Source of the DNA: a virus
Lineage: Duplodnaviria > Caudoviricetes
IMG/VR virus record: IMGVR_UViG_3300044676_004539
Coordinates: 1-29,620 of that record
DNA: 29,620 nt
Reading direction: 5' to 3' (one strand)
This document shows, in pieces, positions 19,223 through 28,282 of this stretch (the first letter of the stretch is position 1; each line of letters opens with the position of its first letter). The notes beneath the pieces are model-generated. The model saw only the letters and a program-made list of their open reading frames with translations, did no database searches and was not told where the DNA came from. The translations under genes and the position numbers were made by a program.

Positions 19223-19486
19223 ATGTTAAGAATACCGACAAAGCCGTTTACGGATAATCAAATTGAATACTATAGTTACATTAATTATAACTATTATAAT
19301 GATCGTCTAATAGAAGAAGATCGCATACTAGACAGTATTGATTATCATCTTCCGACAAGAGAAGAATATTTTTATAGAAAAATAAAATACAGAGCACTGA
19401 TGAAGCCTTGGAAGTATTTAAAAGATTGGAGAAACTTAATGAGATTAAAATATTTAAAAGGAGGCGTTGATGTATCCGAACTTTAA
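19223..19486 (+). CDS. Hypothetical protein (Tyr-rich)
   Basis: 87 aa ORF downstream of a promoter, overlapping the SNF2 start. Confidence 0.5.
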   Translation: MLRIPTKPFTDNQIEYYSYINYNYYNDRLIEEDRILDSIDYHLPTREEYFYRKIKYRALMKPWKYLKDWRNLMRLKYLKGGVDVSEL

Positions 19487-20933
19487 AACAAAACCATTTA
19501 ATCATCAGCTGCAAGCATTGGGTTGTAGTTGGGACAAAACTAATTTTGCATACTTCATGGAAATGGGGACAGGCAAATCGAAAGTATTAATTGATAATAT
19601 TGCCATGCTCTATGACCAGGGCAAAATTAATTCTGCCGTTGTGATTGCACCCAAAGGGGTGTATCGAAACTGGGAACGATTAGAAATTCCTAATCACTTA
19701 CCCGATCACATCACGACAAGAATTACCACTTGGGTGGCACCGAGTTCTCGTAACAAAGAAGATCAAAAGAATATCGATAAGCTATCAGAAACTTTTGACG
19801 GCTTAGATATTTTCTTAATGAACGTTGAGGCTCTATCGAGTAAACCCGCTGCTGAATTTCTATCCAGATATTTAAACTCAACCAATAGTTTGTTAGCGGT
19901 AGATGAAAGCACCACAATCAAAACACAAAGTGCAGGACGTACAAAAAATATTGTGAAAGTTGCACGCCTCGCTAAGTACAGAAGAATATTGACAGGATCT
20001 CCCGTCACTAAAAATCCTATGGATTTATATTCGCAGTGTGCTTTCTTAGACGAAGACCTTTTAGGTTTTGCATCTTACTATGCTTACAAAGCGAGATACG
20101 CTATCGAAGTAAAAAGACATACGTCGACTCATGCGTTTCCTCATATTGTGGGATTTAGAAATTTAGATGAGTTATCCAGGAAGCTAGCGTTCTTTTCTTT
20201 TCGAGTATTGAAAGAGGACTGTTTAGATTTGCCAGCGAAAATTTATTCACCCAGGTATATCGAACTAACCAAGGAACAAGAGAAAGCGTACAATGATCTA
20301 GCGACGTTTGCGATTACGCAGCTCGAGGGACAGACGCTCACGGTTAATAATACAATGACCATGTTGCTTCGATTACATCAGATTACTTGTGGCTACTTGC
20401 CCACGGACGACGGCCAACCGAGCATTCCTTTGAAGAACAATCGCATGGACGAACTCATGAATGTTCTCGAAGAAACAGAAGGTAAAGTTATTATCTGGGC
20501 AAACTATCGACAAAGTATTTTTGATATCAAAGATGCATTGGCAAAAAAGTTTGGTGACGATTCTGTTGAGACTTACTTTGGAGATACCAAGGATCAAGAC
20601 CGACAGGAAATTGTCAGAAAGTTTCAGGACCCCGAAAGTCCTGTAAGGTTTTTCGTAGCCAACCAACAAACCGGTGGCTACGGATTGACACTAACAGCTG
20701 CTCATACGGTTGTTTATTTTTCTAACAATTATGATTTAGAAAAAAGAATACAATCAGAAGATCGAGCACACAGAATAGGTCAAAAGAATAATGTGACCTA
20801 TATAGATATAATTTGTGAGAATACAGTTGATGAAAATATCGTAGCGAGCCTACGAAATAAAATTGACCTAGCATCACAATCATTAGGAGAAACGCTAAAA
20901 GAATGGCTAATAGAAAGCAAAAAGAAAAAGTAA
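19470..20933 (+). CDS. SNF2-family (SF2) helicase/ATPase
   Basis: MEMGTGKS, VDEST, LTGSP, GGYGLTL, QSEDRAHRIGQ; AGGAGG SD. Confidence 0.92.
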   Translation: MYPNFKTKPFNHQLQALGCSWDKTNFAYFMEMGTGKSKVLIDNIAMLYDQGKINSAVVIAPKGVYRNWERLEIPNHLPDHITTRITTWVAPSSRNKEDQKNIDKLSETFDGLDIFLMNVEALSSKPAAEFLSRYLNSTNSLLAVDESTTIKTQSAGRTKNIVKVARLAKYRRILTGSPVTKNPMDLYSQCAFLDEDLLGFASYYAYKARYAIEVKRHTSTHAFPHIVGFRNLDELSRKLAFFSFRVLKEDCLDLPAKIYSPRYIELTKEQEKAYNDLATFAITQLEGQTLTVNNTMTMLLRLHQITCGYLPTDDGQPSIPLKNNRMDELMNVLEETEGKVIIWANYRQSIFDIKDALAKKFGDDSVETYFGDTKDQDRQEIVRKFQDPESPVRFFVANQQTGGYGLTLTAAHTVVYFSNNYDLEKRIQSEDRAHRIGQKNNVTYIDIICENTVDENIVASLRNKIDLASQSLGETLKEWLIESKKKK

Positions 20934-21376
20934 GTTATTACTTTGCGTATGGTTCAAACATGAATCATAAGCATATGAAAATGAGATGTCCTAAGTCAGA
21001 GTACGTAGGCAAATTTACTCTACAAGGATACGAACTTGTATTCAGAGGAGTTGCAGATGTTCAAGAATCTGAAGGTAAATCTGTACCTGGGGGACTATTT
21101 AAAATAACACCCGAGTGTGAAACAGCATTAGATTTCTATGAAGGATACCCAAACCTTTATACCAAGAAATATCATTGGCAGTTTCATAAAGATGATGAGA
21201 AGTACGTAGACGACAAGATTATGTTTTACAGCATGGTCGACAAGCAAGTTGTTTACCCACCTGGAGAAGGATATTTAAGTACCATTCTTCAAGGATATAA
21301 TGACTGTGAAATACCAATGGAGAATAGAAAAGGGATAACAGAAGCCTTAAATTTTTCTATCACAAGACTTGACTAA
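20903..21376 (+). CDS. Gamma-glutamylcyclotransferase (GGCT/AIG2-like)
   Basis: YFAYGSNM signature and LDFYEGYP catalytic region. Confidence 0.88.
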   Translation: MANRKQKEKVSYYFAYGSNMNHKHMKMRCPKSEYVGKFTLQGYELVFRGVADVQESEGKSVPGGLFKITPECETALDFYEGYPNLYTKKYHWQFHKDDEKYVDDKIMFYSMVDKQVVYPPGEGYLSTILQGYNDCEIPMENRKGITEALNFSITRLD

Positions 21377-21396
21377 ACTACATATTAATATATATT
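21368..21396 (+). promoter_or_regulatory. Sigma70-type promoter
   Basis: TTGACT-N16-TATATT upstream of an AGGAG SD and ATG 21416. Confidence 0.45.
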
Positions 21397-21415
21397 TATA
21401 TAATAGGAGAAAGAA

Positions 21416-21562
21416 ATGACGGACACCAACAAGTATAAGTCAATTATCGTAAGAATAGAAACACACACAAAGCTAAAGAAGTTAGCGGGAAAAGATCGAA
21501 AGATCTCTGGTATTGTTTCTAGTTTAGTTGACAAAGAATATGATAAGAGAAAGGCAATATAG
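21416..21562 (+). CDS. 48-aa ribbon-helix-helix-like regulator MTDTNKYKSIIVRIETHTKLKKLAGKDRKISGIVSSLVDKEYDKRKAI (not in ORF track)
   Basis: Hand translation; AGGAG SD; beta-strand KSIIV followed by two amphipathic helices. Confidence 0.65.
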   Translation: MTDTNKYKSIIVRIETHTKLKKLAGKDRKISGIVSSLVDKEYDKRKAI

Positions 21563-21804
21563 TGATAGTTAAACATATGCAGAAGAAAGAAAAGATGCTG
21601 AAGATTGCTGAAGCAGCTATTGAAAACAAAACTAAAATGGAACCAAACTTTACTTCAACAGAAAGTTTGATTAACCAATGGTTAGCAGAAGTTTTTGATT
21701 ACGCTTATGGTTTAGGTGAAGCATCTGGGTTGATGATTGCTCAAAACATGATTAAGAGCACGGATACTCAAATCAATAATATCCTCAAGAAGGATCCTCA
21801 GTAA
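21562..21804 (+). CDS. Hypothetical protein
   Basis: 80 aa, coupled to the RHH gene; start could be ATG 21577. Confidence 0.6.
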   Translation: MIVKHMQKKEKMLKIAEAAIENKTKMEPNFTSTESLINQWLAEVFDYAYGLGEASGLMIAQNMIKSTDTQINNILKKDPQ

Positions 21805-21806
21805 TG

Positions 21807-22054
21807 AGGAGAAGGGGTATAGTAATAACAATTTTTTAGGGCTAAGGCTCGGAAAGGTGTGTTGTTGCAAAAACTCTAGTCTAGTGTCTCTTGCAAAAAT
21901 CTAAACTAGAATATCCCTTCTCCTGATTACTGACAGCGAGAGTTGGTAATCTTCTCAGAAGTCTACCTCCCAAATCAGATGGATGAGACCTTTGATTCAC
22001 TCGCACGAACGGACTAGGGGCAGAAAGGAGCTAGGAACCCTCAAACCCCTAGTC
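21807..22054 (+). ncRNA. Candidate multi-stem structured RNA, family not recognised
   Basis: Six helices found by hand, several abutting, with G-U pairs on the + strand (see findings). Confidence 0.6.
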
Positions 22055-22072
22055 TTAAAAGAAAGGAAAATC

Positions 22073-22183
22073 ATGGACAAAAATTTATTAAAAGAACTGA
22101 CAGTCGAGCAGCTTAAAACCCTTGAAAATCAAGTAAAACAAGAGATCTCCAGGAGAACGATTGCAATTGTTGACAAGGAATAA
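22073..22183 (+). CDS. 36-aa peptide MDKNLLKELTVEQLKTLENQVKQEISRRTIAIVDKE
   Basis: GAAAGGA SD before ATG 22073, a better start than 21983. Confidence 0.55.
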   Translation: MDKNLLKELTVEQLKTLENQVKQEISRRTIAIVDKE

Positions 22184-22197
22184 TTTATTACTAATCT
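22170..22197 (+). promoter_or_regulatory. Promoter with a palindromic operator in its spacer
   Basis: TTGACA-N16-TAATCT; the spacer contains GGAATAATTTATTAC. Confidence 0.5.
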
Positions 22198-22202
22198 TTA
22201 AT

Positions 22203-22275
22203 TGTACTTAGGCACTAAAAGTACAGACATTACTCCGCATATGTTGAAGGGGGGATTTCGGTCCCCCCTTTTTTT
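22203..22275 (+). ncRNA. Candidate ~70-nt small RNA
   Basis: Lies between a promoter and a terminator; 5' hairpin TGTACTT/AAGTACA; no ORF. Confidence 0.45.
22247..22275 (+). terminator. Rho-independent terminator
   Basis: GGGGGGAT-TTCG-GTCCCCCC followed by T7. Confidence 0.9.
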
Positions 22276-22286
22276 ATGCCCGAATA

Positions 22287-22318
22287 GGAATTAATTATCT
22301 ATTTAATTCCCATTGACA
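22287..22318 (+). promoter_or_regulatory. Inverted repeat next to a -35 box
   Basis: GGAATTAA-N8-TTAATTCC just upstream of TTGACA (22313-22318). Confidence 0.4.
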
Positions 22319-22354
22319 TTTACTGTTTTATTTATCTAAAAAAACTATATAAAT

Positions 22355-22639
22355 ATGGATAAGAGCGGGAGTGTTTACCCTGTTTCGATCTCCCGCTTTT
22401 ACAAGGACAACATTATGTTGAACGAGATAAAAACAAAAATCGTCCTCGCTGTCCAACGACAACGAATGTACGATCCGGTATTGAAAGATACAGTCGATAA
22501 AGTCCTAGTGACTTTTAATGACGGGCAAGTTAACGGATACCTCGCTGATGAGTGGGATAATCTAATGACTCAGGTAGATTCAATGCTAGAGAAGGCTTTT
22601 ATTTTGGAGCCTAAAGCTAGTAGACCGCAGCTAGACTAA
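22355..22639 (+). CDS. Hypothetical protein
   Basis: ORF track; likelier start is ATG 22415 after AAGGA. Confidence 0.6.
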   Translation: MDKSGSVYPVSISRFYKDNIMLNEIKTKIVLAVQRQRMYDPVLKDTVDKVLVTFNDGQVNGYLADEWDNLMTQVDSMLEKAFILEPKASRPQLD

Positions 22640-27126: not shown

Positions 27127-27505
27127 GTCGATAACTCCAAACATTTATTGGACAAGAATTGAAACTTACGGAACCCCAGGAATACCAGATTTACTGGGAG
27201 TTTATGTAGATAAATCTTTAAAGAAGAATATTTCTTTTTGGTGTGAATTGAAGCTAACAAAAGGAAACAAACTAGATCTCTCACCTTTCCAAATTTCATG
27301 GAATTTAAAGCGTTATTCTCTATGCCAAGATAATTTTATTATGGCCAAGGGGGTGGAAGAGAGGAAGATTTTCTTTTGGCCAGGAGCCGTGGCCCGTGAG
27401 CTTGTCATCAACTACAAGGACGTTGAACCTTTGTTCACGATCGACCAACCATGGACGCATGTGCTTGAGCCCGCTATCGGGCGTGTGCTTGTGCATGTCC
27501 CTTAG
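26930..27505 (+). CDS. VRR-NUC/Holliday-junction resolvase-like nuclease
   Basis: ESTFW...RIE...GIPDL...FWCELK...LSPFQ; start uncertain. Confidence 0.75.
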   Translation: MASRLVGRETNSNLLKKNSESDFVLSKEKRFALLKKEKQSPKDRKKKTATPSVKRGRESTFWKNVRSITPNIYWTRIETYGTPGIPDLLGVYVDKSLKKNISFWCELKLTKGNKLDLSPFQISWNLKRYSLCQDNFIMAKGVEERKIFFWPGAVARELVINYKDVEPLFTIDQPWTHVLEPAIGRVLVHVP

Positions 27506-27546
27506 AATTTTGGGAGATAATATTTGCCCTGGGACTCCAGCTCTTG

Positions 27547-28282
27547 GTAATATTTTATTACTTTCCAGATGGCAGCTTGCTCCGCAGCTGAATCACTACG
27601 GAGCATTTTTTTTCTGAGTCGGGCAATCTCTTGACCGGTGGTCGTGAGCCTATGATCGTTGTTCATCTGCCTTCATCTTCTTGTGCATGTAATCGTTCCA
27701 CCTGGACTCGTCAAAGTTTGGTGCGTGTCGCTGAGCAAAACTTTTAATTTGGCTTGCGACTGCCTCAAGATCTTGGTCGCCAGGTCCTGTGCATGTTTCT
27801 GCCTTTTGCTGTGCATCGTAGACGATGTCGGCTAGTTCTTTTAAATGTTTCTTTGTTATTGTCATAACAAATCCTTTCTATATATTCTCCCATAATCTAT
27901 CAAAAAAGACCTGGATCTGCAAATAAAAAATGGTCATAAATTATTACCTTGTAGCTCCCCAGGGCCCGCAGCTCCGGATCGTGATTCGTCATAAATTATT
28001 ACTTTATGAGCTGACCTGGTGCCGGGGTTGCTGGTGCGTGATTCGTCATAAATTATTACCGGAGTGCCTGTGCTTGAGCCTGCGTCCTCTGCCTGTGCTT
28101 GTGCGTGCGATTGTGCTTGTGAATTTTTCACGGCCCACGGAAAGCTGCATGAGCTTGTGCGTGTGATTGGTAATATTTTATTACTTTTAGGATCTGGAGA
28201 CCTGGGGACGCCTGAGCATTGGGGTAATATTTTATTACTTTGCCCTGACGCCCCCTGAAATTTTTGAGTCATAAATTATTAC
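27547..28282. repeat. Array of the 15-bp palindrome GT(A/C)ATA-WWT-TATTAC
   Basis: Copies start at 27547, 27933, 27988, 28045, 28170, 28224 and 28268. Confidence 0.85.
27650..27865 (-). CDS. Hypothetical phage protein
   Basis: 71 aa, GAAAGGA SD, TKKH...LA...PNFD..RW pattern. Confidence 0.7.
   Translation of the reverse strand: MTITKKHLKELADIVYDAQQKAETCTGPGDQDLEAVASQIKSFAQRHAPNFDESRWNDYMHKKMKADEQRS

Follow-up and report, generated by a model that had tools for sequence, protein, structure and literature searches.

An apparently uncatalogued, covarying RNA motif of phages, predicted to fold in two states

Introduction

Between two small genes of a tailed phage (Duplodnaviria; Caudoviricetes), the DNA can be folded into a chain of stems. 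Does this locus encode a conserved structured RNA, does it belong to a described family, and what might it do? We analysed the whole 29,620-nt stretch of IMG/VR record IMGVR_UViG_3300044676_004539 (hereafter the window) and homologous loci from other records. An earlier note on this DNA, made from the sequence alone, had described positions 21807–22054 as a large RNA of six stems (P1–P6), and proposed a novel phage non-coding RNA or a switch controlling the downstream 36-aa open reading frame (ORF).

The phage and the neighbourhood of the element

The record has an estimated completeness of 51%, and the window encodes a family A polymerase, a primase, two helicases, an endolysin and a small terminase. 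The identity to HTVC023P, HTVC027P, 023Pt_psg01 and DSL-LC04 is 43–49% for the polymerase and 48–56% for the SNF2 helicase, so the phage is a relative of this group, yet distinct from it. Next to the SNF2 helicase, phages of its own clade have a cassette of small genes and RNA that varies in content (19467–22639 in the window); in the three named relatives MN698239.1, MN698241.1 and OR003939.1 the helicase adjoins other genes.

The element lies on the + strand, in the order promoter-like site, 48-aa ORF, 80-aa ORF, element, 36-aa ORF and terminator-like hairpin (Table 1). Judged from sequence, the transcript carrying the element likely starts at this promoter-like site and likely ends at this hairpin; matches to the promoter consensus number 4, with 6.2 expected in shuffles. 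The 48-aa ORF, for which a ribbon-helix-helix (RHH) likeness is a lead, gave no hit in a Pfam search, and it adjoins the element on the upstream side in many relatives. In L013, L018, L021 and L023, the stop codon of the RHH-like gene is 7 nt before the leader of the element, within a small hairpin. For the 36-aa ORF no family was found in Pfam or the Atlas, and a suspected likeness to H-NS or L29 was unsupported by these searches. Together with its homologues it forms a family of 35–46-aa peptides with the pattern LKELS(I/L/V)EEL...E(I/V)xRR, encoded downstream of many element copies.

Several other features of these genomes were observed. A conserved hairpin (22361–22400 in the window, about 8340–8385 in L088) precedes a 74-aa gene (22415–22639); its loop CCCU...UUUCG is conserved and its stems differ in the divergent group, and ahead of it stands a conserved block TTGAC...TATATAAAT, with a spacing too long for a sigma70 promoter. 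After the small terminase, the gene-poor stretch 27455–28241 contains interspersed direct repeats (TTGGTAATATTTTATTACTTT and CGTGATTCGTCATAAATTATTAC, each in two exact copies, plus GC-rich 25-mers) and is a possible origin or packaging region. A gamma-glutamyl cyclotransferase is encoded at 20903–21376, and the relative L417 (12683–14802) has one amidoligase-like and one weakly amidotransferase-like gene, which together suggest a peptide-ligase module.

Table 1. Features of the element and its surroundings (positions in the window)
Feature	Position	Strand	Remark
Sigma70-like promoter consensus, TTGACT-16-TATATT	21369–21396	+	Consensus match alone
48-aa ORF, ribbon-helix-helix-like (lead)	21416–21562	+	Score 0.93 to a cluster that is 76% RHH_1
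80-aa ORF	21562–21804	+	Stop codon TAA (21802–04) inside the RNA leader
5' leader UCAGUAAU, 5' strand of P0	21798–21805	+	Pairs with 21926–33
P1 (21807–20/21911–24) around variable insert	21807–21924	+	Here P2 and P3; elsewhere one hairpin or a short loop
Mobile pyrimidine-rich-GCA loop motif	21887–21895	+	UCUCUUGCA here, UCUCCGCA in many copies
Shared strand AUUACUGAC	21926–21934	+	Complements the leader (P0) and 21942–50 (P4)
GCGAG, P4 loop	21936–21940	+	Partner CUCGC 22000–04 (PK1)
P4 3' strand	21942–21950	+	Degenerate second copy of the leader
UCUC, PK2	21953–21956	+	Predicted partner of GAGA 21985–88 in the P5 loop; crosses P5
Near-invariant strand GUCUACCUCCCAA (GUYUACCUCCCAA)	21961–21973	+	Anti-Shine-Dalgarno core CCUCC and AbcR-type hexamer CUCCCA (21967–72)
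P5, register variable	21973–21997	+	Conserved loop GGRUGAGA; at least 4 bp in 55/57
CUCGC, PK1 3' strand	22000–22004	+	
P6, hairpin of at least 9 bp	22012–22054	+	About 5 nt past CUCGCA; sequence and loop variable
36-aa ORF	22073–22183	+	Other gene or none at that place in many relatives
Intrinsic-terminator-like hairpin and U run	22246–22271	+	

Boundaries and stability of the fold

All six stems of the earlier note were found where it had placed them, but they hold six G-U pairs and one C-A mismatch instead of seven G-U pairs, and the P5 loop ends in GAGACC rather than in GAGA. The 3' end was kept and the start was corrected to 21798, 9 nt earlier. Here TCAGTAAT (21798–805) forms eight pairs with ATTACTGA (21926–33), and this helix, P0, prolongs P1 beyond a G-G mismatch and excludes P4.

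The span 21807–22054 folds with a z-score of −3.62 on the + strand and −2.31 on the − strand, while 21798–22054 reaches −6.55, with none of 200 shuffles as stable. The minimum free energy (MFE) of this 257-nt element is −93.9; among 115 non-overlapping tiles of that length in the window, the best one reaches −77.7. The + strand folds better than the − strand in 76 of 79 copies. We consider it almost certain that the structure is real. Its size ranges from about 160 to 275 nt, the shortest natural copies having about 160–175 nt.

Distribution among phages

A motif scan of IMG/VR gave 52 loci, namely 50 homologues and two chance pattern matches (L028 and L051), which were left out. Two divergent copies (L088 and L090) were found via their helicase neighbours, and the element is present in 52 IMG/VR contigs, many of which are near-identical, so that counts are of records and not of lineages. 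Of 42 loci whose helicase has an identity of 80% or more, 34 carry the element, and the other 8 end inside the helicase or less than 1 kb from it. Of 120 metagenome loci, the first 100 were compared with model R1, and 66 of these match; the copy number is one per record in five relatives.

Searches further afield reached no other lineage. BLASTN against 50,697 named phage records gave only 4 chance hits, and GTDB genomes contained no pattern match to the element. With model R1, no score exceeded 13.9 bits in 93 loci (85 with a helicase 48–58% identical, and 8 truncated loci of the clade), and the highest limit reached in five whole records, among them HTVC023P, HTVC027P and DSL-LC04, was 10.4 bits; helicase flanks may miss an equivalent region, since other genes follow the helicase in three named relatives. 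The best score in 39 extra loci was 19.7 bits, and no further lineage was reached with the neighbouring 74/78-aa protein as bait. On present sequences, all carriers apparently form one clade of uncultured marine phages, distantly related to HTVC023P.

Assembled RNA contigs from 8 of 24 listed runs were compared with the locus, and the element is partly covered in five of the eight (X1, X2, X3, X8 and X10), a cover that carries no information on strand, ends or level and is given no weight here. In X10, one 153-nt RNA contig lies entirely within the element, and in X8 one contig extends upstream of the leader.

A conserved core with two crossing helices

The conserved part of the element, not singled out in the earlier note, is a core of about 95 nt that contains P4, two crossing helices and a near-invariant strand. 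In 57 distinct copies the four core helices are 98.2% paired, versus 23–51% in slid controls, and the pairs of P4 and PK1 are kept at 100%. The closing pair of P4 is U-A in 41 and C-G in 16 of the 57 cores, with two changes on the tree, and all one-sided changes in P4 give G-U pairs on the + strand. PK1 is a pseudoknot if P4 forms and an ordinary helix if P0 forms. In three divergent copies it changes from GCGAG/CUCGC to GUAGG/CCUAC, which makes three compensatory pairs in a single tree event.

For PK2, three pairs never vary and one varies to U-G; its outer pair changes from A-U to G-C twice, is broken in 22 of 57 cores and in several copies overlaps with the register of P5. It had been proposed that CTTCTC (21951–56) is an alternative partner of the P1 5' strand, but the comparison favours pairing of TCTC (21953–56) with the GAGA of the P5 loop. 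The near-invariant strand includes CCUCC, the conserved core of the anti-Shine-Dalgarno (anti-SD) sequence (PMC10783764). Its invariance is partly a product of selection, because ACCUCCCAA was fixed by all search patterns; likewise, CUCCCA occurs in 57 of 57 cores, though it was fixed by these patterns. Many unpaired core bases are invariant, while P1 and P6 are variable peripheral arms. The comparison across copies shows P0/P1, P4, PK1, P5 and P6 to be kept across the clade, and PK2 is less firm.

The P1 insert and the mobile loop

P1 has about 10 bp with exchange among G-C, A-U and G-U pairs, and P0 and P1 stand in one register in 68 distinct copies. The region that P1 encloses differs greatly in length, with 34–146 nt between the leader and the shared strand (83 distinct copies). 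P2 and P3 are seen in single-sequence folds, but a consensus was not recovered in 31 long-insert copies, and covariation is therefore not established for them.

The pyrimidine-rich-GCA loop motif of this region is found in all 75 main-group copies (65 by pattern, 10 by eye). Its place is the P1 insert, except in the 8 copies with a short loop and no insert, all of which have it in P6; it is missing in the 3 divergent copies. The motif resembles the 3' strand of PK1. It also recurs outside the element in the window, where two small hairpins precede the terminator (22205–22245) and the loop of the second contains CTCCGCA (22233).

A second, uncatalogued RNA module was observed between P6 and the next gene in ten loci (L018, L022, L023, L025, L053, L221, L230, L234, L293 and L298). 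Its first part is a stem-bulge-stem capped by a UGAACA loop, and a long hairpin with CCUCCUUU in a loop comes next, with a terminator-like end; the stems differ between two lineages. Rfam gave no hit to this module in the loci tested.

The leader, the stop codon and the two states

The eight pairs of P0 are kept in 65–68 of 68 copies per position, and position 9, between P0 and P1, is unpaired in 67 of 68 (purine-purine). Since no two-sided change was found in P0, the support for this helix is its conservation, seen also with a non-coding leader (11 of 69 contexts). The strand AUUACUG is complementary both to the leader and to the P4 3' strand. Nested folding favours P0 over P4 in all 79 copies, whereas P4 forms in 77 of 79 when the leader and about nine next bases are held open and the PK1 strands are reserved; GCGAG/CUCGC is able to form in both states. 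Such modelling indicates that the fold probably has two states.

This predicted two-state fold differs from that of the earlier note, the competing partners being the leader and the P4 3' strand. As a control of the 36-aa ORF, a switch is unlikely, because the element persists in 16 of 78 distinct copies without an ORF that bears a ribosome-binding site (RBS) at most 45 nt from P6; the downstream genes also differ, and the conserved strand pairs weakly with the start region of the 36-aa ORF (−4.2 kcal/mol). The idea that switching exposes the anti-SD strand is unsupported, the predicted accessibility of UACCUCC being 0.60 versus 0.58 between the states in a model without pseudoknots.

The genes upstream of the element are unrelated, yet in 69 of 69 contexts they stop within the leader or no more than 7 nt ahead of it. 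The stop codon is in the leader, as CAG-UAA, in 52 of these 69. This overlap may reflect genome compaction. A small ORF starting from the TAATG overlap in the leader was considered and is not conserved.

Comparison with known RNAs

With Rfam 15 at the gathering cut-off, there were 0 hits in the window, in 12 homologous loci and in 63 kb of two relatives. In the window and two divergent copies, sub-threshold hits did not exceed 23 bits, and no ribozyme model was among the hits up to E = 10. ARAGORN found 0 tRNA or tmRNA genes in the window. With covariation across homologues and no Rfam match, the view of the element as a novel structured phage RNA is supported.

Several known systems share some features with this RNA. 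CUCCCA is motif M1 of the alphaproteobacterial small RNAs AbcR1 and AbcR2 (passages in PMC5461406), but their second motif, GUUCCC (M2), is absent from 21798–22054, no Rfam hit was obtained, and the hexamer is here in the pseudoknotted core of a phage RNA, behind a stop codon. The cuckoo RNAs (RSs0680, CcsR), as described in passages of PMC4615179, are likewise transcribed together with a small gene in front of them, lie ahead of a terminator and have modular hairpins with anti-SD-like loops. They are composed of 2–4 adjacent simple hairpins, each loop with CCUCCUCCC, and have no multiloop, whereas the phage RNA has one ACCUCCC outside a simple hairpin loop, multiloops and crossing helices. 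At best, the element would work like AbcR or cuckoo small RNAs; it fails their structural definitions. RNase III sites of T7 early mRNA such as R1.1 are similar in that their helix has about two turns, is interrupted by a mismatch and is placed between genes of a podovirus-like polycistronic transcript (passages in PMC1540722 and PMC8708148), but in the element one strand can pair a second time, in P4, and the putative processing stem precedes a conserved folded domain.

For DUF2693-FD (RF02926), P4 of two copies is matched by an 18-nt hairpin whose UAGCGAGAA loop is identical, but at 18.3 bits against a cut-off of 44.5 and over model positions 25–42 of 49 only; 0 of 5 records were above the cut-off, and the other two element-bearing records searched had no match. 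Small double-pseudoknot ribozymes such as twister, HDV-like and pistol resemble the element in their compact core, in which two helices cross and unpaired bases are invariant, and in their variable arms. The strand order of the element differs, and it shows no recognisable cleavage motif and no Rfam match. ROOL and GOLLD RNAs are also phage-encoded and pseudoknotted (passages in bioRxiv 2024.12.08.627333), but the element is far smaller than these, has no tRNA nearby and gives no Rfam hit.

In the literature searched on phage and non-coding RNA, there was no description of the element, and non-coding RNA did not turn up when PMC9599517 and PMC12753301 were searched by term. Fremin et al. 2023 mined intergenic regions of IMG/VR v3 (PMC10690425), and their roughly 8,500 unnamed DNA-virus candidates may include the element or a part of it; neither its motif nor a contig id was seen in the part of that material covered. 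In summary, this RNA motif of phages is real and covaries, is predicted to fold in two states and is apparently uncatalogued.

Possible functions

As the best explanation, we tentatively suggest a small anti-SD RNA that would act in trans and mature from a precursor through a cut of the RNase III type. As transcribed, the leader would hold AUUACUG in the P0/P1 helix of 18–23 bp, so P4 could not form in the precursor. By length and position, this helix would be an RNase III processing stem as in T7 early mRNA. The RNAs that Escherichia coli RNase III cleaves usually have two helical turns, and for one cut a 12-bp stem that carries a tetraloop is enough (passages in PMC1540722 and PMC8708148); the stem found here has 8 bp, a mismatch and about 10 or more bp (68 copies). 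A cut near the conserved purine-purine mismatch, or a ribosome halting at the leader UAA, would free AUUACUG, and P4 is then predicted to form at the new 5' end, with GCGAG/CUCGC becoming an H-type pseudoknot. Loss of the leader through such a cut, with P4 folding as a result, would explain why one strand keeps two partners. In the weakest step, the UACCUCCCAA strand and the pyrimidine-rich loops of the mature RNA would serve as anti-SD seeds in trans and block the RBSs of other mRNAs, a use of seeds that resembles alphaproteobacterial AbcR and cuckoo small RNAs.

A trans-acting small RNA is favoured because of the ORF-less copies, the weak local pairing and the extra CCUCCUUU-loop hairpins in relatives. 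However, a fold this elaborate seems to exceed the needs of a seed, AbcR and cuckoo RNAs being simple hairpin arrays. No conserved phage target was found in the phage start regions scanned. The endolysin start region was rejected as a target: its −14.6 kcal/mol in the window does not stand out from 6,578 tiles, and 2 of 5 relatives lack the TTGGG tract.

Other readings have to be weighed against this small RNA. It is rather unlikely that the element is a self-cleaving or catalytic RNA of a new class, whose double-pseudoknot core would be active and whose P0 would be inhibitory until freed by a terminating ribosome. Inhibitory upstream pairings are known for HDV-like ribozymes, and the two crossing helices, the many invariant unpaired bases, the variable arms P1 and P6 and the small intergenic site in a phage operon would fit, but no Rfam family matched, ribozymes included, by-eye mapping to the consensus elements of twister, HDV, hammerhead and hairpin ribozymes failed, and no junction skipping the element was present in the RNA contigs, at low cover. 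A translation-armed form of ribozyme or RNA machine, in which a ribosome at the leader UAA strips one strand, the internal copy takes over and the active double-pseudoknot core folds, is in our view unlikely. The stop codons within the leader (52 of 69 contexts), the two predicted states and the 62 of 78 copies with an SD-led ORF at most 45 nt from P6 would also suit a cis element, a broader version of the switch in the earlier note, by which downstream translation or stability would be tied to termination of the upstream ORF; this is doubtful given the 16 copies without such an ORF, the several families of downstream genes, an SD that is unpaired after P6 in folds of the window and a duplex with the SD of only −4.2 kcal/mol.

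The mobile loop could instead make the RNA a protein-binding decoy or a multimer, if UCUC(Y)GCA binds a protein or kisses the GCGAGA/GAGA loop of another copy. Phage ROOL and GOLLD RNAs are a precedent, as they multimerise through kissing loops (passages in bioRxiv 2024.12.08.627333), and the loop is kept throughout the main group, moves to P6 where the insert is absent and is similar to the PK1 3' strand; its loss in the three divergent copies, a relocation that was maybe one event and the lack of an identified co-occurring RNA-binding protein leave this with a low probability. For a ligand-sensing aptamer similar to purine riboswitches, GCGAG/CUCGC in the leader-bound state would close a three-way junction with two kissing loops. 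In 51 of 79 unconstrained folds the probability of this pairing exceeds 0.5, and the junction is visible in the window MFE, but the second junction arm (GUA/UAC) appears in just 9 of 79, and downstream there is neither a metabolic gene nor a constant expression platform, which makes an aptamer quite improbable. Least credible is a signal at the DNA level, such as an origin, an operator array or a single-stranded DNA hairpin, which we regard as very unlikely: folding with DNA parameters does give a z-score of −4.36, and short CTCYYGC-type repeats adjoin the RHH-like gene, but the G-U-only asymmetry is on one strand, the long-range helix covaries, and the stem sequences of P1 and P6 vary freely.

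Significance

The core stays nearly unchanged while the genes on both sides swap, which indicates a function under strong selection. Its design is unusual: one strand can pair with either of two others, the leader contains a stop codon, the core is doubly pseudoknotted and one loop is mobile. The element may prove to be a processed anti-SD small RNA of a phage, a translation-coupled RNA switch or a new class of ribozyme.
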